Shown here: positions 1,394 through 12,026 of the stretch, in pieces | Numbering within the stretch: position 1 is the first letter of the stretch | Layout of the letters: each line of letters starts with the position of its first letter | NCBI GenBank assembly: GCA_021769965.1 | Contig: JAETRU010000012.1 | Location: forward strand, 1,215-65,214 | DNA: 64,000 bases | Source of the DNA: Eubacterium sp. | GTDB lineage: Bacteria; Bacillota; Clostridia; Peptostreptococcales; Anaerovoracaceae | Direction: 5' to 3' | The notes under the pieces: generated by a model | What the model was told of the DNA's origin: nothing | The model's database searches: none | What the model saw: only the letters and a program-made list of their open reading frames with translations | Translations under genes and position numbers: made by a program

Positions 1394-2707
1394 ATGACTA
1401 AAACATTTCATATAACGACTTTCGGCTGCCAGATGAATGAGCACGACTCTGAAATTATGGCAGGCATGCTTTTAGAAAAGGGCTTTACGCCGGTGAAGGA
1501 ACGAAAGGATGCTGACGTTGCGATTATCAATACCTGCAGTGTCAGGGAAAACGCGGACAAACGCTTTTTCGGCACCCTCGGTCAGCTGAAGCACCGCAAA
1601 AAAGAAAACCCTGACTTTATCGTCTGTGTCTGCGGCTGTATGATGCAGCAGCAGCATGTTATCGATACGATCAAGACCAAGTATCCGTGGGTGGATATCA
1701 TTTTCGGAACCCACAATATTCATCAGTTCCCGCAGCTGATCGAAAACGCTTTGAACGAGAAGAAGAAACAGATCGAGATCTGGCCCGACGGCGGTGAGAT
1801 CGTAGAAGGTCTGCCTGCCAAGCGGCTTCACCAGAGCAAAGCTCTTGTCAATATCATGTTCGGCTGCAATAATTTCTGCACCTACTGTATCGTGCCATAT
1901 ACCCGGGGCAGGGAGCGGAGCAGAAAGCCGGCGGAAATTGTTCGTGAGGTTCGCAATCTGGTCTCTGACGGTGTAAAGGAGATCATGCTTTTGGGTCAGA
2001 ATGTAAACTCCTATAAAGGAGAGGGCGGCACGGATTTCGCCGATCTGATCTACCAGCTCAACGAAGTAGAAGGGCTTGAGCGAATCCGTTTTATGACTTC
2101 CCATCCGAAAGATTTGTCGGATAAACTGATTCAGGCATTTGTAGACTGCGATAAACTCTGTAAAAATATTCATCTGCCGGTACAGTCAGGCAGCAGCAGG
2201 ATCCTCAAAGCGATGAACCGCCATTATGACAAAGAGCAGTATCTGAATTTAGTAGAAAAGCTGAAAAATGCTGTGCCGGGCATTACCATGTCCACGGATA
2301 TTATCGTAGGATTTCCGGGAGAAACAGAGGAAGATTTTGAGCAAACCCTGGATCTGATCAGCAGAGTCCGCTATGATTCTGCCTTTACCTTCCTGTATTC
2401 TATCAGAAAAGGTACGCCGGCAGAAAAATACGAAGATCAGATACCGGAAGAGATCAAACATGAACGCTTCAACCGTCTGGTGGATCTGGTGAATTCCATC
2501 AGTGCCGAAAAGAACGCCGCGTATGTGGGTACCGTACAGAAAGTGCTGGTGGAAGGTCCTGCGAAAAGCGGCAGCAAAACTTTTGCGGGCAGAACTGACG
2601 GTTTTAAGCTGGTAAATTTCCGCGGTGAGCCGCAGCTGACCGGTAAGCTGGTCGATGTAAAGATCACAAAGAGCAATACGTTCAGTCTGGAAGGAGAGGT
2701 TCTATGA
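1394..2707 (+). CDS. miaB: tRNA-2-methylthio-N6-dimethylallyladenosine synthase
   Basis: N-terminal TFGCQMN and NTCSVRE motifs, radical SAM CNNFCTYC, DIIVGFPGET, C-terminal TRAM domain. Confidence 0.95.
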   Translation: MTKTFHITTFGCQMNEHDSEIMAGMLLEKGFTPVKERKDADVAIINTCSVRENADKRFFGTLGQLKHRKKENPDFIVCVCGCMMQQQHVIDTIKTKYPWVDIIFGTHNIHQFPQLIENALNEKKKQIEIWPDGGEIVEGLPAKRLHQSKALVNIMFGCNNFCTYCIVPYTRGRERSRKPAEIVREVRNLVSDGVKEIMLLGQNVNSYKGEGGTDFADLIYQLNEVEGLERIRFMTSHPKDLSDKLIQAFVDCDKLCKNIHLPVQSGSSRILKAMNRHYDKEQYLNLVEKLKNAVPGITMSTDIIVGFPGETEEDFEQTLDLISRVRYDSAFTFLYSIRKGTPAEKYEDQIPEEIKHERFNRLVDLVNSISAEKNAAYVGTVQKVLVEGPAKSGSKTFAGRTDGFKLVNFRGEPQLTGKLVDVKITKSNTFSLEGEVL

Positions 2708-3306
2708 ACCCGAAATTAAGAGGCCTTTCTGCTGTTATTTCGGACTTTGTACCGGGCTGTGAGCAGGAAGAAAGAGACCGGAAGATCATGCTGAAGTTCC
2801 TAAAGGACAACGATAATTGTCTGGAGCGGGCGAATTTAACGGCGCATTTTACAGCCTCCTCGTGGATCGTAAACGAGGCAGGCGATGGCATGGGTGACGA
2901 TAAAGTACTTATGGTCTATCACAACCTGTATAACTCCTGGTCGTGGACAGGCGGTCACGCTGACGGCGAAGCAGACCTTCTTTCCGTTGCGATCCGTGAA
3001 GCGCAGGAAGAAACCGGGGTACAGGATTTCAAAGTACTTCGGCGCGAGCCGGTTTCTCTCGAAATCATTACCGTGGACGGTCATATGAAGCGCGGCATTT
3101 ACGTGCCGTCACATCTGCATTTAAACCTGACGTATCTGCTGCAGGCTGACGAGACACAGAAGCTGTCTGTAAAGCCTGACGAAAACAGCGGAGTCGCATG
3201 GATTCCTGCCGGAGAACTTGCTGAACGTGTCAGTGAGCCGTGGATGATGAGATGGGTCTATGAGAAGCTGATGGCGAGAGTGAAGAAAGTTTTAACTGAG
3301 GATTGA
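2704..3306 (+). CDS. NUDIX hydrolase
   Basis: Nudix box GGHADGEADLLSVAIREAQEETG; ATGA overlap with miaB stop. Confidence 0.9.
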   Translation: MNPKLRGLSAVISDFVPGCEQEERDRKIMLKFLKDNDNCLERANLTAHFTASSWIVNEAGDGMGDDKVLMVYHNLYNSWSWTGGHADGEADLLSVAIREAQEETGVQDFKVLRREPVSLEIITVDGHMKRGIYVPSHLHLNLTYLLQADETQKLSVKPDENSGVAWIPAGELAERVSEPWMMRWVYEKLMARVKKVLTED

Positions 3307-3444
3307 CGAACTCATATATAAGTGTACATATAATCGAAAAAATTCCTGAATATATGCACGTGTAATCACAAGGTCGTGCATATTTTAGGAGTTTTTTTGT
3401 TATATATGCATTTTGACATGATAAAAAATGAAGGGAGAGTGAAG

Positions 3445-4290
3445 ATGGAAGAGAGAATTCTGACTGTTGATTTGATTGAGGCATTTTGTACCTACTTGTA
3501 TCAGGAGGAGAAAAGCGAAGCAACCATTGAAAAATACCGTCGCGATGTAAAAAAATTTGCGGATTATTTAAACGGTGAAGCCGCAGTAAAGGAAAGGCTG
3601 ATTGCATACAAACAGTATTTAATTACGGAGGGCTATGCACTCAGCAGCGTCAATTCTATGCTGGTTGCAGTTAACAGCTTTTTTTCGTACGCAGGTTGGG
3701 AAGATTTGAGAATCAAACTGGTAAAAGTCCAAAAACAGATTTTTTGTGCAGAAGAAAAGGAACTGACGAGGTCGGAGTACTTACGCCTGGTAGATTGTGC
3801 GCGCAGGAGTGGAAAGGAAAGACTGGCGATGATCTTGTGGACTATGGGAACTACAGGAATCCGTATCAGTGAACTGAAGTTCATTACAGTAGAGTCAGTA
3901 AAACAAGGGAAACTGCAGGTGTGCAGCAAGTCAAAGAATCGAACTGTGTTTCTGGTAAAAAGGTTACGAAAAAAACTGCTTGCATACATAAAAAAGAAGA
4001 AAATTATATCTGGAAATATTTTTCTAACTCGCAGCGGGAGACCAGTCAATCGGACTAATATTTGGAAAGAGATGAAAACACTTTGTAAAGCAGCTGAGGT
4101 TTCAGAGAAAAAGGTTTTTCCGCATAACCTCCGGCACCTCTTCGCAAGAGTGTTTTATCAAGTGGAAAAGGATATCGCAAAATTGGCAGATATTCTGGGA
4201 CATAGCAGTATCAATACGACTCGGATTTATATGGCTTCATCGGGCTGTGAGCATCTGCGCTGCATGGAGAAAATGAAGATGTTGATGTGA
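3445..4290 (+). CDS. tyrosine recombinase (Xer/phage-integrase family), 281 aa
   Basis: Catalytic motifs GIRISEL, FPHNLRHLFA, LGHSSINTTRIY; ATG 3445 with GGGAGAG upstream. Confidence 0.93.
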   Translation: MEERILTVDLIEAFCTYLYQEEKSEATIEKYRRDVKKFADYLNGEAAVKERLIAYKQYLITEGYALSSVNSMLVAVNSFFSYAGWEDLRIKLVKVQKQIFCAEEKELTRSEYLRLVDCARRSGKERLAMILWTMGTTGIRISELKFITVESVKQGKLQVCSKSKNRTVFLVKRLRKKLLAYIKKKKIISGNIFLTRSGRPVNRTNIWKEMKTLCKAAEVSEKKVFPHNLRHLFARVFYQVEKDIAKLADILGHSSINTTRIYMASSGCEHLRCMEKMKMLM

Positions 4291-4299
4291 TAGATCAGA

Positions 4300-4327
4300 A
4301 TGCAACATAATTATGATTATGTTACAA
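4300..4327 (+). repeat. dif-like recombination site, left (IRL)
   Basis: ATGCAACATAA-TTATGA-TTATGTTACAA (11-6-11); right arm resembles the XerD arm TTATGTTAAAT; core 4306-4324 is the exact reverse complement of 4544-4562. Confidence 0.85.
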
Positions 4328-4351
4328 ATGTGTATAGCAACACATAAAAAG

Positions 4352-4380
4352 ATTATACTTTGAAATAGTGCAAAAATCAA
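4352..4380 (-). promoter_or_regulatory. sigmaA-type promoter inside the invertible segment, pointing away from the downstream operon
   Basis: Minus strand TTGATT (4380-4375)-17 bp-TATAAT (4357-4352); small IR ATGTGT-N6-ACACAT at 4328-4345 just downstream. Confidence 0.75.
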
Positions 4381-4540
4381 CATTTTCTGATAATATTTGT
4401 GACATTGATAGTTTTTTCTAATTTTGTCCATGACAAATAAGCTGTTTCGACTATTGCGGCATTAAATAACGAAAGAGCTTGTTTTGTTGTATCTGTAATT
4501 CTGTTTTGCAGTAATGGTTTTAGCTGAAAAAGAGTGCTAA

Positions 4541-4568
4541 TTATAACATAATCATAATTATGCTGTAA
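4541..4568 (-). repeat. dif-like recombination site, right (IRR), inverted relative to IRL
   Basis: Minus strand TTACAGCATAA-TTATGA-TTATGTTATAA; same 6-bp spacer as IRL. Confidence 0.85.
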
Positions 4569-4589
4569 TTGTTTTTTGAGGAGGATGAA

Positions 4590-5774
4590 ATGGCAAAGAT
4601 TGCAGATGTAATCAAGTATGAAGGAGATAACAGCACCTTTATATGGAAACATCCCAGTGAGGATTTTAACAGTTTGACACAACTGATTGTCCACGAAAGC
4701 CAGGAGGCTGTTTTCTTTATGAATGGACAGGCACTGGATTTATTCGGACCGGGCAGATATACATTGGAAACCCAGAATATTCCTAAGATCGGAAAACTCT
4801 TGAATCGCTCGACAGGAGATACAACGCCTTTTCACTGCGAGGTTTACTTTATTAATAAAACTGAACAGATGGCAATTAAGTGGGGTACTGACAGCAAAGT
4901 ACAGTACATAGAACCGACCTATGGATTTCCAATTTCTATCGGTGCTTCGGGCGAAATGAGTCTGCGGGTAGAGGATAGCAGAAAGCTTTTAATCAAGGTA
5001 GTAGGTACGGAGAGCTCTCTTGGTCAGCAGAATCTTACGACTTTCTTCCGTGGGTTTCTGATGGCTCGTGTAAAGACATATATCGCGCAGGTGATGAAGT
5101 CCAATGCGATTAATATCTTTGAAATTGACGAAAATCTGACTGTCTTTTCGGAAAACGTTCGGAATCTTTTAATAAATGATTTTGCTGATTACGGCGTCAG
5201 CCTGGAACGCTTTTTTGTAACCAACATTGTAAAGCCTGACGGTGAGCGACAGTTCGAAAAGTTCAAAGAACTGTATTTTCGCCAGTATGCTGATATTGCG
5301 GAGGCAAAGCTCCGTCAGCAGGTTGGAATCATCGACCAGCAGACCGAGGCACAGAAGATGGTGATTGAATCTCAGGCAATTGCGCAGAAACGAATGCAGG
5401 AAGGCTATACCTATCAGCAGGAAAGAGGTTTTGATGTTGCGCAGGACGCAGCTAAAAATGAGGCAGTAGGACAGTTTACCAATATGGGTATTGGACTTGG
5501 TGTCATGGGCGGCGTTGGCAGCAGTGTGGGCACTATGGTTGGCGGCGCAGTAAGCGGCGCTTTTGACGGAATGCAGGGTGTCGCAGCTGTACAGTCTGTA
5601 GGAAATACAGACACTTTTTGTGAAAACTGTGGTGCAAAGCTTGCTGCTGGTGCAGCATTTTGCGAGGAGTGCGGTATTGCCGTGCCTGTGGATACTTCAA
5701 AGTGTGTCGGCTGCGGGTTTGTCTTTGAACGTCCGGGTAAGTTCTGTCCAAAATGCGGTATGAAGAGAGGGTAG
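4590..5774 (+). CDS. SPFH/band-7 ('virion core protein'-type) protein with C-terminal double zinc ribbon, 394 aa
   Basis: LIVHESQEAVFF..GQALDLFGPGRYTL N-terminus, coiled middle, Gly-rich linker, CENC/CEEC/CVGC/CPKC; GAGGAGG RBS. Confidence 0.85.
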   Translation: MAKIADVIKYEGDNSTFIWKHPSEDFNSLTQLIVHESQEAVFFMNGQALDLFGPGRYTLETQNIPKIGKLLNRSTGDTTPFHCEVYFINKTEQMAIKWGTDSKVQYIEPTYGFPISIGASGEMSLRVEDSRKLLIKVVGTESSLGQQNLTTFFRGFLMARVKTYIAQVMKSNAINIFEIDENLTVFSENVRNLLINDFADYGVSLERFFVTNIVKPDGERQFEKFKELYFRQYADIAEAKLRQQVGIIDQQTEAQKMVIESQAIAQKRMQEGYTYQQERGFDVAQDAAKNEAVGQFTNMGIGLGVMGGVGSSVGTMVGGAVSGAFDGMQGVAAVQSVGNTDTFCENCGAKLAAGAAFCEECGIAVPVDTSKCVGCGFVFERPGKFCPKCGMKRG

Positions 5775-5778
5775 AAGG

Positions 5779-6486
5779 ATGAGTAAAAGATTTAAAATGT
5801 ACGCCTCCGTATGGGCGATTATGTTTATTGTATTTCAGATTATCTGTTTCGTAACGCCGACTGAGGCCGCAGGAATGAATAAATTCGGCGGCGCGTTTTG
5901 GGCAGGATATGTGTTTATCGATCTGGCTTTTGTCGGACAGCTGGTCTGCGCTTATATTGCACTGAAAGCAGAAAATATGCGGAAGCTGTTTTATAACCTG
6001 TCTCTGATTAATATCAGCTATACGGGACTTGTGCTTATGTTGATATGCGGTGCTGGAGTGATGATCGTGCCAGATATTCCAAACTGGGTTGGAATCATTC
6101 TATGTCTTCTAATTTTGGCCTTTACTGCAACATCCGTGATTGCGGCCAAAGCGACTGTGGATATTGTCGACCGCATGGACGATAAGTTAAAGGTTCAGAC
6201 CTTTTATATGAAAAATCTGCAGACAGAGGCGGAAACCTTGATGTCGCAGGCAAAATCGCCAGAAAGTAAAGCTGTTTGTAAAAAAGTCTACGAAGAAATT
6301 CGCTACGCTGATCCGATGAGCCACGAAGCTCTGACCACCTTAGAAGCACAGATTACTATTAAATTTGCAGAATTAAAAGAAGCCGTTGCCAGTGAAGATG
6401 ATTCGGCTGAGACTGTACAGCAATTGGCAAAAGAGGTAATTGTGCTGGTGCAGGAGAGAGGAAAGAAAGTAAAGCTGGTGAAGTAG
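5779..6486 (+). CDS. membrane protein, about 4 TM helices plus soluble helical C-terminus
   Basis: Four hydrophobic stretches in the N-terminal half; 4 bp after SPFH stop. Confidence 0.85.
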   Translation: MSKRFKMYASVWAIMFIVFQIICFVTPTEAAGMNKFGGAFWAGYVFIDLAFVGQLVCAYIALKAENMRKLFYNLSLINISYTGLVLMLICGAGVMIVPDIPNWVGIILCLLILAFTATSVIAAKATVDIVDRMDDKLKVQTFYMKNLQTEAETLMSQAKSPESKAVCKKVYEEIRYADPMSHEALTTLEAQITIKFAELKEAVASEDDSAETVQQLAKEVIVLVQERGKKVKLVK

Positions 6487-6487
6487 G

Positions 6488-7696
6488 ATGGGGAAAAGAG
6501 TATCTTTTTTATTTGGTTCAGGTGCGGATACTGCTGCATGCAAGAAGTTGAAATCAGGTGACTCTTTTGCTGAAGCGTTGCTATTGGGGAAATATAGAAA
6601 AGAAAGAAAAGAATTATTAGGTGAGGACTTTGCAGAATATCAACTTATATATCCACAGAGTAGCAAGGTCTTTATTCAAAGTATTGTTGAAAATAAAGAA
6701 GAAGCGCAAAAAATTTTCCCTGAAAAATTTGATATTTGTTATAATTATGCAACCCAAAAAGAGGAAATAGATTATAGTGGTGTGATAAGACCAATGTGCA
6801 AAGACTTTTATGATATTATCCATAGTGAAGAACAAGAAGAGACGAAAGACATCAGGAACTTCTTTTTGAAAAAAGCCGTTTTCTTTGATTCGCTAGATGA
6901 AAAATTCAACTCATTAAGGGATATTGAATTTAATAAAAATGGAAAAAGAGTTATTAATGCGTATGTTACTATTTTTATTCTCATGTTCAAAAGCCTTTAT
7001 GATATACCTGAAGAGTTTCAATGGACATATGAAAACATATTCAACGTATTGAAGAAAGACTACGATATTTTGTCCGATATAACAAATGAGAATTATTATA
7101 GTATTGTAAAGAACAGTGGAATTTCGTGTAAAATTATCACAACAAACTATACTGAATTATCGGAGAAGCTAACAGAAAAACCAGTAACATACTTGCATGG
7201 AAAACTGAATTGGTTTGAGGATTTAAAGAATTTAACTGTTTATGATTGTACGAATAAAGAGGAACTGAATAAGATGAAACCTCTTATTAAATCTTGCTGT
7301 TTAATACCGTTTATATTAATACCTAGCGGAATCAAGCCAATCATATGCAAAAGACAAATCAAAGAATTTTATAAAATGATTGAGAAATTGGATAATAGCA
7401 ATATTCTATGTGTCGTTGGATACCGATTTAATAGTGAGGATAATCACATAAATTCAATTATTGCTGAGTGGATTAGAGAACCTAATCATCAGCTATTTTA
7501 TTTCAATTTTAATGAAGATGTAAGTTTTTCAAGATTAAGATGGGCGGACTTGTTTTCGATAAAAGATATAGAATATCGTGACAATTATGAGATAAATTTT
7601 ATAAAAATCGAAGAAAAAATTGTAAATATCATTGTAAATGAGAGCAATAGTATAAAGGCATTTTCTACATTTATGAATCAACTTGAAAGGAGTTAA
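6488..7696 (+). CDS. SIR2-like (SIR2_2-type) protein, putative NADase, 402 aa
   Basis: FLFGSGAD, IITTNYT, YLHGKL, ILIPS, VVGYRFNSEDNHIN motifs in sirtuin order; very AT-rich. Confidence 0.75.
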   Translation: MGKRVSFLFGSGADTAACKKLKSGDSFAEALLLGKYRKERKELLGEDFAEYQLIYPQSSKVFIQSIVENKEEAQKIFPEKFDICYNYATQKEEIDYSGVIRPMCKDFYDIIHSEEQEETKDIRNFFLKKAVFFDSLDEKFNSLRDIEFNKNGKRVINAYVTIFILMFKSLYDIPEEFQWTYENIFNVLKKDYDILSDITNENYYSIVKNSGISCKIITTNYTELSEKLTEKPVTYLHGKLNWFEDLKNLTVYDCTNKEELNKMKPLIKSCCLIPFILIPSGIKPIICKRQIKEFYKMIEKLDNSNILCVVGYRFNSEDNHINSIIAEWIREPNHQLFYFNFNEDVSFSRLRWADLFSIKDIEYRDNYEINFIKIEEKIVNIIVNESNSIKAFSTFMNQLERS

Positions 7697-7703
7697 TCTA
7701 ATA

Positions 7704-10208
7704 ATGTCAATATTCAAATGCAAAATGTGCGGCGGTACACTGGAAATCACAAATAATGAAACTGTAGCAGTCTGTGAGTACTGCGGCACTAAGCAGACTT
7801 TACCAAAACTTGATGATGAAAAACGCGCTAATCTTTACGACCGTGCAAACCATTTCAGACGTAGTAACGAGTATGATAAAGCGATGGGAATTTATGAACA
7901 GATTCTTAACGAGGACAGCACGGATGCAGAAGCGTACTGGTCGCTGGTGCTTTGCCGCTATGGTATTGAGTATGTAGAAGATCCAGCTACTCACAAGCGC
8001 GTGCCGACAGTGAACCGTGCACAATATGCTTCTATTTTCACTGATGAAGACTATAAAGCGGCATTACAACATGCTGACGGATATCAGAGGGTAGTTTACG
8101 AAGAAGAAGCGCAGGCAATCGACAATATCCAGAAAGGTATTCTTGCTATATCACAGCGTGAAGAACCTTTTGACGTGTTTATTTGCTACAAAGAAACGGA
8201 CAATCAAGGACGGAGAACGCCTGACTCTGTGCTTGCCAACGACCTGTATCATCAGCTGACACAGGAGGGCTTTCGCGTATTCTTTGCGAGAATTACCTTG
8301 GAGGATAAGCTGGGTTCTGCATATGAGCCGTACATATTTGCAGCATTGAACTCCGCAAAGGTTATGGTTGTGCTTGGAACAAAGCCAGAGCATTTTCAGG
8401 CTGTATGGGTAAAAAATGAGTGGAGCAGATATCTTTCATTAATTAAGAATGATGCTAAGAAAATGCTGATTCCAGCTTACAAGGATATGGATCCATATGA
8501 TTTACCGGAAGAATTTTCTCATCTGCAAGCACAGGATATGTCCAAGCTTGGCTTTATGCAGGATTTGATTCGTGGAATTAAGAAAATTACGGCGTTAGAA
8601 AAACCAAAGACTACAGCAAAGGAAACCGTAGTCGTAAGCAGTGCCGCCGGCAATGCAGAATCGCTATTAAAGCGTGCCTTTATGTTTCTTGAAGATGGTG
8701 ATTTTGCAAGTGCAAACGAATACTGTGAGAAAGTGCTGGATTTAGATCCAGAAAATCCAAGAGGCTATCTGGGCAAACTGATGGCAGAGCAGAATGTCAG
8801 AACAAAAGAAGCCTTGAAAGATTGTAAAGAATCCTTTGAGGAAGCGAATAACTATCAGAAGGTGGTTCGCTTTGGTGATGCTGCTTTAGTTGCTGAACTA
8901 CAAGGATATGTTAAATATATCAATGACAGAAATGAACTGGATAGAAAGATGTTTGCTTATGATACTGCAAAATCTTTAATGGAAAGGGCTAAAAGTGAAA
9001 ATGATTTCAAAGAAGCTGCAGAAAAATTCCAGATAGCAGCAGGTTATGAGGACGCAGATAATTTGGCTGATGAATGTCTGGAAAAGGCAGAAATTGCAAG
9101 GAAAGATGCGATCTATGATGCCGCACAGATGCAGATGAAAAGAAATACAATTTCTGATTATGAGAAAGCAATAGAAGGATTTCAGAGTATTGTAGACTGG
9201 AAAGACTCAGAAGAACAGAAAGTTGTTTGTCAACAGGCGTTATCCAAACTTCAGGCTGAACGAGAGGTGAGGAGTAAGACAACTAAAAAATGGATTAAAA
9301 TATTAGTTCCTCTGGCAATTATATGTGCTGTTTTAGGAATTGTCGTAAAAACGATAATTATACCAGAAAGTCAATATAAAAACGCAATAAGTTTAATGGA
9401 GCAAAACCAATACGAAAAAGCAATTAAAGAGTTTGAAAAGCTTAATGGATACAAAGATAGTAGAAATAAAATCAGTGAAGCAGAAGAATTGTTTTTAGAA
9501 AACAAATACCAATATGCGGTTGAATTATATCAGAATAAAGAATTTGAAAAGGCCAGGAAAGAATTTGAACTGTTAGGCGATTATAAGAACTCTAAAGTTT
9601 TAATTAAGAAGTATTTAATGGAAAGTGGAGTGGATTACTCTAAAATAGGTGATTCCTATTATTTTGGATCTTATGAACAAGATAATGATAGGAGTAATGG
9701 CAAAGAGAAAATAGAGTGGCTTATTATTGAAAGAAATGATAACAAGGCATTATTAATTAGCAAGTATGTATTGGACTATAGAAAATATAATAGTGACGCT
9801 GTTGTTGTAAAGAGCCTCAACGATTACGATGAAACAACAGGAACAATGAGCTGGGAACAGTGTGATTTAAGAAGTTGGCTTAATAATGAGTTCCTAAAAA
9901 ATGCATTTACTTTAAAAGAAAGAAATCAAATACGAGATGATATTTTTATCCTATCATCGAATGAAGTTGAAAAATATTTCCCTTCGAGCGAACTTAGGGT
10001 TTGTGAGCCAACGGTTTATGTAAAGAAAAAAGGTGTTAAGACAAATTCTTATGGGAAATGCGATTGGTGGCTAATAGCTAGTGAGAGTATAGAATCTTCA
10101 TATAGATTATCTACATCAATTGTGTCTGGTGTTGGAGAAATTTCTAAAGCGGGTGTTGATTCACAAATTGGTGTTCGCCCAGCCATCTGGCTTGACCTTG
10201 CTAAATAA
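7704..10208 (+). CDS. Zn-ribbon/TPR/TIR/TPR/TM/DUF6273-like multidomain membrane protein, 834 aa
   Basis: CKMC..CEYC; TPR helices; TIR FDVFICYK...VWVKNEW with the conserved Glu; one TM (ILVPLAIICAVLGIVV); C-terminal IEW...LLISKY...W..CDLRSWLN...WWL...GVRPAIWLDL. Confidence 0.85.
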   Translation: MSIFKCKMCGGTLEITNNETVAVCEYCGTKQTLPKLDDEKRANLYDRANHFRRSNEYDKAMGIYEQILNEDSTDAEAYWSLVLCRYGIEYVEDPATHKRVPTVNRAQYASIFTDEDYKAALQHADGYQRVVYEEEAQAIDNIQKGILAISQREEPFDVFICYKETDNQGRRTPDSVLANDLYHQLTQEGFRVFFARITLEDKLGSAYEPYIFAALNSAKVMVVLGTKPEHFQAVWVKNEWSRYLSLIKNDAKKMLIPAYKDMDPYDLPEEFSHLQAQDMSKLGFMQDLIRGIKKITALEKPKTTAKETVVVSSAAGNAESLLKRAFMFLEDGDFASANEYCEKVLDLDPENPRGYLGKLMAEQNVRTKEALKDCKESFEEANNYQKVVRFGDAALVAELQGYVKYINDRNELDRKMFAYDTAKSLMERAKSENDFKEAAEKFQIAAGYEDADNLADECLEKAEIARKDAIYDAAQMQMKRNTISDYEKAIEGFQSIVDWKDSEEQKVVCQQALSKLQAEREVRSKTTKKWIKILVPLAIICAVLGIVVKTIIIPESQYKNAISLMEQNQYEKAIKEFEKLNGYKDSRNKISEAEELFLENKYQYAVELYQNKEFEKARKEFELLGDYKNSKVLIKKYLMESGVDYSKIGDSYYFGSYEQDNDRSNGKEKIEWLIIERNDNKALLISKYVLDYRKYNSDAVVVKSLNDYDETTGTMSWEQCDLRSWLNNEFLKNAFTLKERNQIRDDIFILSSNEVEKYFPSSELRVCEPTVYVKKKGVKTNSYGKCDWWLIASESIESSYRLSTSIVSGVGEISKAGVDSQIGVRPAIWLDLAK

Positions 10209-10266
10209 AAATAATTTCAATAAATTACGCTTACGGTATATTTGAAATTAACAAATAATTCATTAC

Positions 10267-10303
10267 AAATGGCACTATGCACTAGATTTGTATAGTGCCA
10301 TTT
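10267..10303 (+). terminator. stem-loop after the TIR gene (probable terminator and intron target)
   Basis: AAATGGCACTAT (10267-10278) / ATAGTGCCATTT (10292-10303) perfect 12-bp IR. Confidence 0.6.
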
Positions 10304-10309
10304 ATAGTG

Positions 10310-10420
10310 GAGTGCCGGGCATGACACAGTTCTAAGATGATCCTAAGCTCAGGTTGAGAGTCAGCACCACCAAAACAAAGGTCGTGAGACCTGCCAGGAG
10401 CAATTTCTTAGGTTTATCTT
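10310..10420 (+). pseudogene. group IIC intron relic (5' end plus reverse-transcriptase fragment)
   Basis: GAGTGCCGGGCATG resembles the IIC 5' end GTGTGCCCGGCATG, 6 nt after a stem-loop; frame from 10339 reads PKLRLRVSTTKTKVVRPARSNFLG, like RT domains 6-7. Confidence 0.55.
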
Positions 10421-10528
10421 CTGAAAAGACAGGGAATGTCTATATATAGTTGTTGCTATTTTCAAAACTGTGTGCTACAATAACTGCGTACATTATTTAT
10501 TTTTTGCGTGTGGAAAGTTGGTGTCTGC

Positions 10529-11134
10529 TTGAGTAAAAAAGAAATTTTGAAAACGGTAATTGAAAATAACGGCGGCATTGCAAAAACTTCGGATTTTGCC
10601 ACTAACGGTATAAATAAATACGAGGTAGCGGCTTTTTGTAAAGAAGGAGTCATTGAAAGAATTCGCAGAGGATTTTACCAGCTCCCCCAAAGTAAAAGCA
10701 TTACCGAAGAACAGCTCATACGGGAGCTTCTTCCGCAGGGAATTATTTGTGTGGAGTCCGCTTTGTTTCACTACGGATATAGTGATTTTTCTCCCCGTGA
10801 ATGGACGATTGCTGTACCAAGAACAGCGTCCCGTGTTGTAAAGAACATTGAAGAATTTCCGATGAAAGCTTACTATATTCAAAAAAGCTTTTTAGATATA
10901 GGTAAGTCCACAGGCAATTTTAACGGTGTAATATTGTCTGTGTATGATCGTGAGCGAACAATATGTGATTGCTTTAAGTACCGCACTAAACTTGACAACG
11001 AAATTTTTAATAAGGCTGTCAATGCCTATGCTGCTGACGAAAAAAAGAATCTTGCAAATTTGTCTAAATACGCAAAGGAAATGAAGCTTTATACAAAGAT
11101 TATGAATGTAATGGAGGTGCTGCTTAATGGCTGA
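10529..11134 (+). CDS. abiEi: type IV TA antitoxin, AbiEi family
   Basis: N-terminal wHTH (IERIRRGFY), GIICVESALFHYG, YDRERTICD; overlaps the toxin start. Confidence 0.85.
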   Translation: MSKKEILKTVIENNGGIAKTSDFATNGINKYEVAAFCKEGVIERIRRGFYQLPQSKSITEEQLIRELLPQGIICVESALFHYGYSDFSPREWTIAVPRTASRVVKNIEEFPMKAYYIQKSFLDIGKSTGNFNGVILSVYDRERTICDCFKYRTKLDNEIFNKAVNAYAADEKKNLANLSKYAKEMKLYTKIMNVMEVLLNG

Positions 11135-12026
11135 TATAGCTGCGTCCGTGCTGGCACGGCTCAAAAACAAAGCTGCTGAAAACGGCAGAAGCTATCAGCT
11201 CTGCCTGCAGCTCTTTTGCCAAGAGGAATTCTTGCGCCGTTTGGAAAAGTCTAGGTATGCTGAAAACCTCGTGTTGAAAGGCGGCTTGTTCCTCTATTCC
11301 CTCACTGACTTTGACAGCCGGGTAACGGTTGATGTTGATTTTTTGCTTCGGAAAATGCCCAATACACCGGAGCAGTTAAAGGGTATACTTGAGGAAATTA
11401 TTGCGGTTCATACCGGCAATGATTTTATTACCTTTGAGATAAAGGATGTTGCACCTATTGCTGCTCAGAAGAAATATGCCGGTATAGGTGCATCAATAGT
11501 TGCTCGTGTAAAAAACACACGCACACCCTTTGGCATTGACTTCGGCGTTGGGGATGTTATCGTGCCGAAACAGGAAAAAAGAAAGATTCCCACTCAGCTT
11601 GATGATTTTGCTGCACCTACAGTTAATACTTATTCCATTGAAACGACTGTTGCTGAGAAAATTGACGCGATCCTCAGCCTGATGGAGTTCTCCAGCCGCA
11701 TGAAAGACTATTACGATATTTATTATCTTGCCAATAAGTTTGACTTTGACGGTATGGTGCTGACCGAAGCACTCAGAAGAACCTTTGCGAACCGTGAGCA
11801 CAATTTTACGGGAGAACAGTTTGAACAGGTTATGGGCTTCGATGGAGATACGGCAATGCAGAAGAAATGGAAAGCCTTTGTCCGTAAAATCGACACGAAA
11901 ACCGATGATTACAGTACCGTGTTGAAAATAATAAAGGCTTTCCTGACAAAACCGTTTACTGCGGCGACCAGCGGTAAAGAATTTACTGAAAAATGGTCTG
12001 CAATTAATGGCAAATGGATGCAATAG
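11127..12026 (+). CDS. abiEii: nucleotidyltransferase toxin, AbiEii family
   Basis: VLKGG, RVTVDVDF, ETTVAEKIDA, SRMKDYYD motifs. Confidence 0.88.
   Translation: MADIAASVLARLKNKAAENGRSYQLCLQLFCQEEFLRRLEKSRYAENLVLKGGLFLYSLTDFDSRVTVDVDFLLRKMPNTPEQLKGILEEIIAVHTGNDFITFEIKDVAPIAAQKKYAGIGASIVARVKNTRTPFGIDFGVGDVIVPKQEKRKIPTQLDDFAAPTVNTYSIETTVAEKIDAILSLMEFSSRMKDYYDIYYLANKFDFDGMVLTEALRRTFANREHNFTGEQFEQVMGFDGDTAMQKKWKAFVRKIDTKTDDYSTVLKIIKAFLTKPFTAATSGKEFTEKWSAINGKWMQ

Follow-up and report, generated by a model that had tools for sequence, protein, structure and literature searches.

What is the role of the short non-coding segment which separates a tyrosine recombinase gene from a four-gene operon in a gut Eubacterium genome? 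In the stretch of 64,000 nucleotides analysed here (hereafter the window; Eubacterium sp., assembly GCA_021769965.1, contig JAETRU010000012.1, positions 1,215 to 65,214 of the forward strand), this segment of about 240 bp lies between two inverted sites just after the recombinase gene, and is followed by co-directional genes for an SPFH protein, a membrane protein, a SIR2-like protein and a TPR-TIR protein. An earlier note, made from the sequence alone, had proposed that it is a promoter switch caught in the OFF orientation. Our results reveal that the segment flips in nature and that the ON/OFF phase-variation switch is genuine, and we consider it highly probable that the locus is a site-specific DNA inversion switch, or inverton, which flips a promoter-bearing segment before the SPFH/SIR2/TIR operon.

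The two sites, IRL on the left and IRR on the right (Table 1), both have an 11-6-11 layout, namely ATGCAACATAA-TTATGA-TTATGTTACAA for IRL and TTATAACATAA-TCATAA-TTATGCTGTAA for IRR, where the spacer TCATAA is the exact reverse complement of TTATGA. They share the core CATAA-TTATGA-TTATG, and the stretch which is identical in both amounts to 19 nt (4306-4324 in IRL, 4544-4562 in IRR); a repeat search gives the arms 4303-4327 and 4541-4565 as 25 nt, 92% complementary and 213 nt apart. The sequence agrees with the inverted pair of 28-bp sites, 19-bp core and asymmetric TTATGA spacer that the earlier note had described, apart from the enclosed length: 213 bp lie between the 28-bp sites, while the 219 bp given there hold for the stretch 4325-4543 (the interior with the inner arms) which differs between the ON and OFF forms. 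In the whole 64-kb window the pattern CATAA-N6-TTATG occurs at IRL and IRR only, with 0.06 occurrences expected and none of 100 shuffles containing two or more. With 11-bp arms, a 6-bp spacer and CATAA and TTATG as inner arms, the sites are dif-type targets; the likeness to dif, which had been noticed for the XerD arm, is real and extends to both arms when the E. coli dif string GGTGCGCATAATGTATATTATGTTAAAT, confirmed in the literature, is used for comparison. An exact-pattern scan of Joint Genome Institute (JGI) metagenome contigs for the site of the window locus itself, RCATAATTATGATTATGTTAYAA, gave no match. The attL and attR ends of an integrated element were considered as another identity for the pair and were rejected, since the sites are inverted, the 240-bp segment is non-coding and inversion is observed.

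The evidence that carries the answer comes from other assemblies of the same strain. A look-up with the exact sequence of the SPFH protein found the same locus in seven other public assemblies among the matches listed. One of them, a Logan contig of run SRR13008597 (L025) corresponding to window positions 1851-8774, differs from the window at 4325-4543 only in its 6,924 bp, and it shows 0 mismatches over these 6,924 bp when compared with an in-silico inversion of the window by crossover in the spacer. The window orientation, OFF, is found in L024 (GCA_021769805.1), L026 (SRR13008598), L027, L028 and L030; these five are identical to the window across the switch, and L024 and L028 differ from it solely by a G>A at 8409. 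SRR13008598 is a sibling run of SRR13008597 and holds the OFF form of the identical sequence. The remaining contig, L029 (SRR13008591), starts at 4544, which is the first base past the ON/OFF-polymorphic position 4543, and this start fits a graph bubble, as a population of mixed orientation would produce. The same strain is thus present in public assemblies in both orientations, ON in L025 and OFF in the window and the five assemblies named, and the alternative form is just the crossover product that had been predicted. Logan contigs of 12 further DNA runs were either OFF or low-coverage fragments, and joints with a change of strand were absent from them, a result uninformative on rare ON cells as contigs drop minority variants. 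Contig ends just after IRL in relatives (L081-L083, L085 and L087) were also considered as signs of mixed orientation. This was ruled out for the lineage of L084, L085 and L087, whose shared repeat of 30 nt would by itself break a k=31 graph; the breaks in L081-L083 are left uninterpreted, and the break argument is kept for L029 alone, where the core is 19 nt.

The ON form also tells where the strands were exchanged. The two repeats differ at 4305 and 4325; the ON form has the IRL base at 4305 and the IRR-derived base at 4325, and at the right end the final difference between ON and OFF is at 4543. Because 4305 is kept and 4325 is changed, the strands must have been exchanged within the 19-bp core, which is what a tyrosine recombinase would do. 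Moreover, as the 19-nt core is shorter than the assembly word of 31 nt (a size we infer from the 31-letter-word index), the ON junctions were not made by the assembler and must exist in the reads, and since the flanks are 100% identical over 6.9 kb, the inversion event is recent.

Table 1. Features of the switch and of the operon behind it, in window coordinates
Feature	Position	Strand	Evidence
Xer-like tyrosine recombinase, presumed invertase	3445..4290	+	Pfam, NCBIfam, structure alignment, linked sites
Left recombination site, IRL	4300..4327	+	sequence, repeat search, pattern scan, natural inverted form
Invertible segment, interior	4328..4540	no strand	natural form equals the window with the segment reverse-complemented
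Predicted sigma-70-type promoter, TTGATT-17-TATAAT	4352..4380	-	promoter scan, conservation
Hairpin (AAGCTGTTTCG...CGAAAGAGCTT) followed by GTTTTGTTGT	4438..4491	+	RNA fold, conservation
Right recombination site, IRR	4541..4568	+	sequence, repeat search, pattern scan, natural inverted form
SPFH/Band-7 protein with C-terminal double zinc ribbon, first operon gene	4590..5774	+	Band_7_1 1.6e-40, DZR 2.5e-08
235-aa membrane protein, no family assignment	5779..6486	+	hydropathy scan
402-aa SIR2-fold protein	6488..7696	+	motifs, AlphaFold2 model, fold matches
834-aa TPR - TIR - DUF6273 protein	7704..10208	+	Pfam; public gene calls of 834 aa; mechanical open reading frame starts at TTG 7683

What does the inversion move? 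The promoter scan finds the minus-strand TTGATT-17-TATAAT that the earlier note had pointed out, with the -35 at 4380-4375 and the -10 at 4357-4352 and with 10 of 12 consensus positions matched, and in the window orientation transcription from it would run toward the 3' end of the recombinase gene. In the inverted form the -10 comes to lie at 4511-4516, about 67 nt upstream of the SPFH ATG, close to the 70 nt or so estimated before. The plus-strand candidates toward the operon are weaker, with 9 of 12 matches, and use as -10 the CATAAT that belongs to the recombination site; the earlier note had found no comparable promoter facing the operon. For comparison, 61 related loci were taken from scans with the recombinase of one-genome-per-species and metagenome contigs, and 12 more from look-ups of close homologs. 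In relatives whose recombinases are 79-91% identical, the -35 and -10 are invariant and the promoter spacer varies. A single near-consensus outward promoter, 50-90 bp from one end, is present in most of the family elements examined; some members have a weaker -10 or none past the scan threshold, for example L004 and a human-gut lineage. The promoter points toward the cargo in L002, L006 and L011, and toward the recombinase in the window, L001, L003, L012, L014-L019 and all close relatives. Activity of TTGATT-17-TATAAT as a promoter is thus a prediction from sequence and conservation. If the promoter is active, convergent transcription into the 3' end of the recombinase gene is structurally unavoidable in the OFF orientation throughout the family, and the 3' end of the recombinase mRNA must differ between the orientations; antisense feedback on the recombinase, as the earlier note had proposed, is a conjecture.

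Besides the promoter, the segment contains a second signal, a terminator-like hairpin, which had been missed by the earlier note and which probably contributes to the OFF state. In the window orientation the hairpin proper (4438-4479) and the T-tract behind it resemble a plus-strand terminator, with the promoter on the other strand, and the region 4430-4495 of the plus strand folds with -18.5 kcal/mol (z -3.5). The consensus terminator scan missed it because its loop is longer than 8 nt. When the four closest relatives are compared, the site arms, both promoter hexamers and the hairpin stems together with the T-tract stay unchanged, and the loops and the rest drift. In a wider comparison a hairpin is found at the same relative position, upstream of the promoter, in 12 of 12 elements from 11 loci (L011 and L012 have the same hairpin, and so do L014 and L016), with stems that differ between lineages, and it is this constant position that makes the hairpin convincing. 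In the human-gut lineage it takes the form of a textbook intrinsic terminator, GACCAATGAA...TTCATTGGTC then TGTTTTTTTG, again on the strand opposite to the promoter. The hairpin in the window is flanked by an A-tract upstream as well as by the T-tract downstream, and it may terminate in both directions. In promoter-forward elements, about 10 nt 5' of the hairpin (window 4480-4491, plus strand), the sequence CACAACAAA(T/A)A resembles the half-site ACAACATAA; it may be the A/T-tract of a bidirectional terminator or an accessory binding site of the recombinase.

Taken together, the mechanism we propose is as follows. The recombinase would bind the two inverted dif-like sites just downstream of its own gene and exchange strands within the asymmetric 6-bp TTATGA spacer, which would flip about 240 bp. 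The flipped DNA would carry two directional signals on opposite strands, an outward sigma-70-type promoter and a hairpin with T-tract acting as terminator. In the OFF state, as in the window, the promoter would fire toward the recombinase and the terminator would face the recombinase transcripts, so that the operon is shielded; in the ON state the promoter would stand about 67 nt before the SPFH start and drive the SPFH, four-transmembrane, SIR2-like and TPR-TIR genes. A population would then be a mix of ON and OFF cells, that is, phase variation with a possible role in bet-hedging.

Several observations weigh against this proposal. The exact locus is ON in one assembly only, L025, among the matches listed, and contigs rather than reads were compared. 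Four runs labelled 'RNA?' yielded scattered low-depth 151-nt pieces, or pieces from a 93% relative, and were of no use for start sites or for expression by orientation. For the hairpin, the shuffle test gives p = 0.005 to 0.5 per locus, which makes the single-locus statistics modest, and the T-tract is imperfect in several family members. On the side of the cargo, PADLOC and NCBIfam searches of the operon found no known defence system, and the same four-gene core, with a different C-terminal domain in the TIR protein, exists in other gut contigs without a switch, so the switch is not integral to the function of the operon.

The hairpin leads to the alternative that survives best, in which the segment would be an invertible terminator: the operon would be expressed by read-through from the recombinase gene or from upstream, the hairpin would terminate in one orientation, and the promoter would be weak or irrelevant. 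Such a reading can draw on the conserved hairpin on the plus strand in the window orientation, on the shared direction of all genes and a gap of just 13 nt from the recombinase stop to the IRL core, and on the precedent of the C. difficile cwpV switch, which is reported to work through a terminator (PMC2784873). We nevertheless hold it to be unlikely, because the -35 and -10 stay fixed among relatives whose promoter spacer varies, because most family members have a near-consensus outward promoter in the corresponding position, and because termination is possible both ways from a hairpin with an A-tract and a T-tract. As it predicts the same polarity, with the window OFF, it would be a refinement of the promoter switch and not its contradiction.

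Two variants of the segment in other material merit attention in their own right. One assembly has a T>A at 4549 in the inner arm of IRR, which turns CATAA into CAAAA and changes a base invariant in the family; it might slow the switch or lock it in the OFF orientation. In one gut metagenome the locus is found in two contigs which overlap by 5 bp (4386-4390), and each of them passes over into foreign sequence (GACTGTGAAG... in one, ...CTATTTTACACTA in the other). The pattern resembles an insertion within the invertible segment, just upstream of the promoter -35, perhaps of an insertion sequence (IS) element with a 5-bp target duplication, by which the switch of the population concerned would be disrupted.

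Which enzyme flips the segment? The recombinase has 281 aa, or 297 aa when some gene callers place its start upstream; exact-protein look-ups with two candidate start codons returned no match, and the public gene call is the 297-aa form. It matches the Pfam families Phage_integrase (2.2e-24) and Phage_int_SAM_1, aligns over its full length with XerA (4a8e, 5hxy) and XerD (1a0p), and has XerA 4a8e (E 9e-22), then XerD and XerH, as closest relatives by sequence and structure. The catalytic Arg, Lys, His-x-x-Arg, His and Tyr are present in GIRISEL, KSKNR, HNLRH, GHSS and TRIY and are in place in the alignment with the XerA and XerD structures, so the catalytic motifs are intact, as had been claimed. 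The Xer equivalog models of NCBIfam give scores below their cutoffs, with XerA_Arch best (140.9 bits against 220), followed by XerD (119.1 against 329.6) and XerC (113.2 against 335), and the FimB/FimE-type invertase models PRK09870 and PRK09871 give 29.7 and 21 bits against 221 and 222. On the plus strand, the promoter scan gave no clear candidate for the recombinase gene. An imperfect inverted repeat of 34 nt, 71% complementary and with its arms 14 nt apart, occupies 3327-3408, past the NUDIX gene and before the recombinase start, and could be the terminator of the NUDIX gene or an operator of the recombinase.

A further point against our proposal, as regards the enzyme, is that the sites share with dif the CATAA-N6-TTATG core as well as the 11-6-11 layout, which raises the possibility that the host Xer recombinases for chromosome dimer resolution flip these sites and that the adjacent recombinase is incidental or has another role. 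The distribution of the module makes this very unlikely. A site pair is found just 3' of the recombinase gene in 66 of the 84 loci examined, in several Clostridia families, with the pair consensus (T)ACAACATAA-N6-TTATGTTGT(A), at a fixed distance of 5-95 bp past the stop codon and with 210-280 bp between the sites. The arm sequence, near-palindromic and resembling both dif arms, varies with the recombinase clade (CACATAA in L014-L019, for example), and near-palindromic arms fit one recombinase species and not a XerC/XerD heterodimer; besides, the cargo varies and the recombinase does not. It is the adjacent recombinase, in our view, that presumably does the flipping.

The family shows furthermore how the sites are kept competent. 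There are 15 distinct 6-nt spacers, none of them palindromic, and the spacer of the partner site is always the exact reverse complement; close relatives, for instance, have TTGTGA/TCACAA where the window has TTATGA/TCATAA, a paired compensatory change. Such covariation over 15 types indicates selection for recombination competence between the paired sites. The close relatives with recombinases of 79-91% identity, including Emergencia sp. 1XD21-10, keep the order MiaB, NUDIX, recombinase, switch and SPFH. Homologous loci in both orientations, which the proposal predicts, are found in two further members of the family. In L011 and L012 the left flanks are 90% identical, and the interiors are 91% identical only as reverse complements and 40% directly, with the distal inner-arm bases swapped; in the human-gut lineage with spacer TTTTTC, whose interiors are 96-100% identical, the two orientations are represented by 14 and 8 independent contigs. 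An origin of the ON contig from an assembly artefact, or from a one-off homologous recombination between short inverted repeats and without programmed switching, could appeal to the single ON assembly of the exact locus among the matches listed and to evidence that consists of assembled contigs throughout, and is nonetheless extremely unlikely, given that a de Bruijn assembler needs spanning reads to join across a core shorter than its word, that identical flanks date the event as recent, that orientation polymorphism arose independently in two other members, and that the spacers covary.

Two metagenome-assembled genomes (MAGs) carry two modules each, JAZUHA01 (L003 and L007) with spacers TTCTGA and TTTGAA, and JAZUDP01 (L006 and L008) with TTTTGA and TATCGA, under the same arm consensus. 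By analogy with the spacer variants of Cre/lox and Flp/FRT, on which this reasoning is based, it suggests that spacer heterology keeps paralogous switches apart. L007 and L023, both in Acutalibacteraceae MAGs, have their sites 888 bp apart, and the promoter scan found no strong promoter near the ends of these elements; the larger segment may carry something else. The cargo elsewhere in the family includes agr quorum sensing, adhesins with VWA and Cna_B, SipW- and TasA-like matrix proteins, YpsA-SLOG followed by a type IIG restriction enzyme or a NACHT protein, a tubulin-like system, and DUF4379 zinc-finger proteins. Because the cargo differs so widely, the unit of recombinase and switch is a portable regulatory module. 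The recombinase family comprises at least 8,000 sequence clusters, named only 'tyrosine-type recombinase/integrase'.

The cargo in the window is an operon of co-directional genes, with gaps of 1-4 nt among the first three and the ATG of the TIR gene 7 nt past the stop of the SIR2-like gene; the SPFH gene has the ribosome-binding site GAGGAGG at 4578-4584. The 235-aa protein has about four predicted transmembrane helices in its N-terminal half and no significant match in Pfam, PADLOC or NCBIfam, and is kept as the second cassette gene elsewhere. The 402-aa protein is without a Pfam match and has weak SIR2 matches in PADLOC (E 1e-3) and NCBIfam. In its family of 42 homologs F-G-x-G, T-N-Y-T and the G of a near-invariant H-G are invariant, and a G-Y-x-F-N-x-E-D motif is also seen; its AlphaFold2 model (predicted local distance difference test score, pLDDT, 91.9) finds as top PDB folds the SIR2 of SIR2-HerA antiphage complexes and sirtuins (E 2e-6 to 1e-4, template-modelling score about 0.44), and it is accordingly a predicted NADase or sirtuin-like enzyme. 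The TIR gene matches TIR_2 (9.5e-11; 42.7 bits against a cutoff of 28, residues 165-288 of the 841-aa open reading frame), TPR families and DUF6273 (4.6e-15) in Pfam. The TIR and SIR2 labels given to the operon in the earlier note are borne out by these results. As for Thoeris, PADLOC gave no match to that system, NCBIfam ThcB4 scored 23.4 bits against 220 and a SLOG domain was not detected; SPFH partners do not figure in a 2025 survey of TIR systems.

The surroundings resemble a defence island, although a role in defence is presumed for the operon. An AbiEi/AbiEii pair follows the operon at 10508-12026, and the region 4001-12000, from the recombinase to the Abi pair, has 38.5% G+C against 45-54% in the rest of the window; with a MiaB-like/NUDIX pair on one side and a Na+/H+ exchanger gene on the other, it has the look of an island gained by horizontal transfer. 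We regard the operon as a candidate for a NAD-targeting, membrane-associated defence or abortive-infection cassette. In Emergencia sp. 1XD21-10 (L076, GCA_009936045.1; 6544-7131) and in L038 (7043-7630), whose recombinases are about 80% identical, the SIR2-like gene is replaced by an unrelated gene of 195 aa, the product of which has no Pfam match, and the SPFH, 235-aa membrane and TIR genes are kept, which amounts to a swap of effector modules inside the cassette. Homologs of the SIR2-like protein (429 aa, 170 member sequences) are also paired with an RCC1/WD40-repeat protein at 8001-9290 in L031-L034, in human-gut defence islands that adjoin type I restriction-modification fragments and AAA_21 ATPases and that lie on or beside an integrative element with Rep, FtsK and integrase.

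What then does the locus add? Among gut bacteria, invertible promoters count as one of the main origins of heritable differences between cells, and to our knowledge the mechanistic work has been done almost entirely on Bacteroides, E. coli and C. difficile. This kind of switch is already known and very common in gut Clostridia, and the locus adds one more member, a clean and verifiable example from an uncultured gut clostridial lineage with Emergencia sp. as close relative. There is some novelty in the dif-derived sites with locus-private spacers, in the built-in terminator and in a phase-variable candidate SIR2/TIR operon. As a practical consequence, such switches can be annotated without reads, by looking just 3' of a recombinase gene for CATAA-N6-TTATG and a partner with reverse-complement spacer 200-300 bp away. 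The locus-specific spacers hint at the independence of paralogous switches and offer ready-made orthogonal recombination sites. The candidate SIR2/TIR cargo adds to the evidence that costly defence expression can be phase-variable, which matters for predicting phage susceptibility from genomes alone. A wider reading, which we put forward only tentatively, is that of a very large and mostly unstudied group of domesticated Xer/dif modules among gut Clostridia, whose private spacers serve as an address code and whose two-signal cassettes have been recruited for a costly NAD-targeting immune operon. If the address code were true, shared arms with private 6-bp spacers would let many switches coexist in a genome without cross-recombination; if the recruitment were true, control would be stochastically ON or OFF, and the cost of immunity of the abortive-infection type would be borne by a subpopulation only.

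Among the known systems, fimS with FimB and FimE comes first to mind, as it likewise has a short invertible promoter segment (about 0.3 kb) between inverted repeats, tyrosine recombinases encoded immediately upstream, and co-directional cargo after the segment. In the fim system the 3' end of the recombinase mRNA depends on the orientation of the switch, and the layout here would allow for the same, as the transcript of the recombinase has to enter the switch. The differences are that fimS has 9-bp repeats, needs IHF and Lrp and uses two recombinases, whereas here one recombinase serves 28-bp dif-like sites and is Xer-like, scoring 21-30 bits on invertase models with a cutoff of about 221. The single-recombinase Xer/dif systems (archaeal XerA, XerH/difH, XerS/difSL) share the 11-6-11 layout and the CATAA-N6-TTATG core, and the near-palindromic arms here fit one recombinase species as well; in contrast to dif, which is one site at the replication terminus, two inverted sites stand 240 bp apart beside the gene, the outcome is inversion and not dimer resolution, and the spacer changes between loci.

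The RecV switches of C. difficile (cwpV, flgB, cmrRST, pdcB) are also clostridial inversions by a tyrosine recombinase, of 150-300 bp and upstream of operons. Of these, cwpV is reported to have an orientation-dependent terminator and flgB to be subject to termination in the OFF state (PMC2784873, PMC7446863), and by analogy the terminator-like hairpin here suggests a related logic. RecV differs in being one unlinked recombinase for many switches with dissimilar repeats, whereas each switch here has its adjacent recombinase under a family-wide site consensus. The vpma and vsa loci of Mycoplasma are reported to have the Xer-like recombinase Xer1 encoded next to a locus whose inversions lead to phase variation (PMC2268961); there one promoter is shuffled among several surface-protein genes, unlike the two-state flip here, and hosts and sites are unrelated. 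Closest of all is inverton group 139 in the 2025 Microbiome survey of a defined gut community, which comprises 33 invertons, 32 of them from Clostridia, of about 255 bp with repeats of 14-26 nt, nearly all adjoining a tyrosine recombinase of invertase group 35 and flipping in culture by read counts (PMC11892184); its members include Clostridium sp. D5 3525576-3525832 and Intestinimonas butyriciproducens 1750639-1750893. The text of the survey, as far as consulted, makes no mention of dif-like architecture, locus-specific spacers, an internal terminator or SIR2/TIR cargo (PMC11892184), which sets it apart from the present description, and its dimensions, taxon, recombinase name and adjacency agree with the family of the window. 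Judged by these published features, group 139 and its invertase group 35 are probably the same family as the module in the window.

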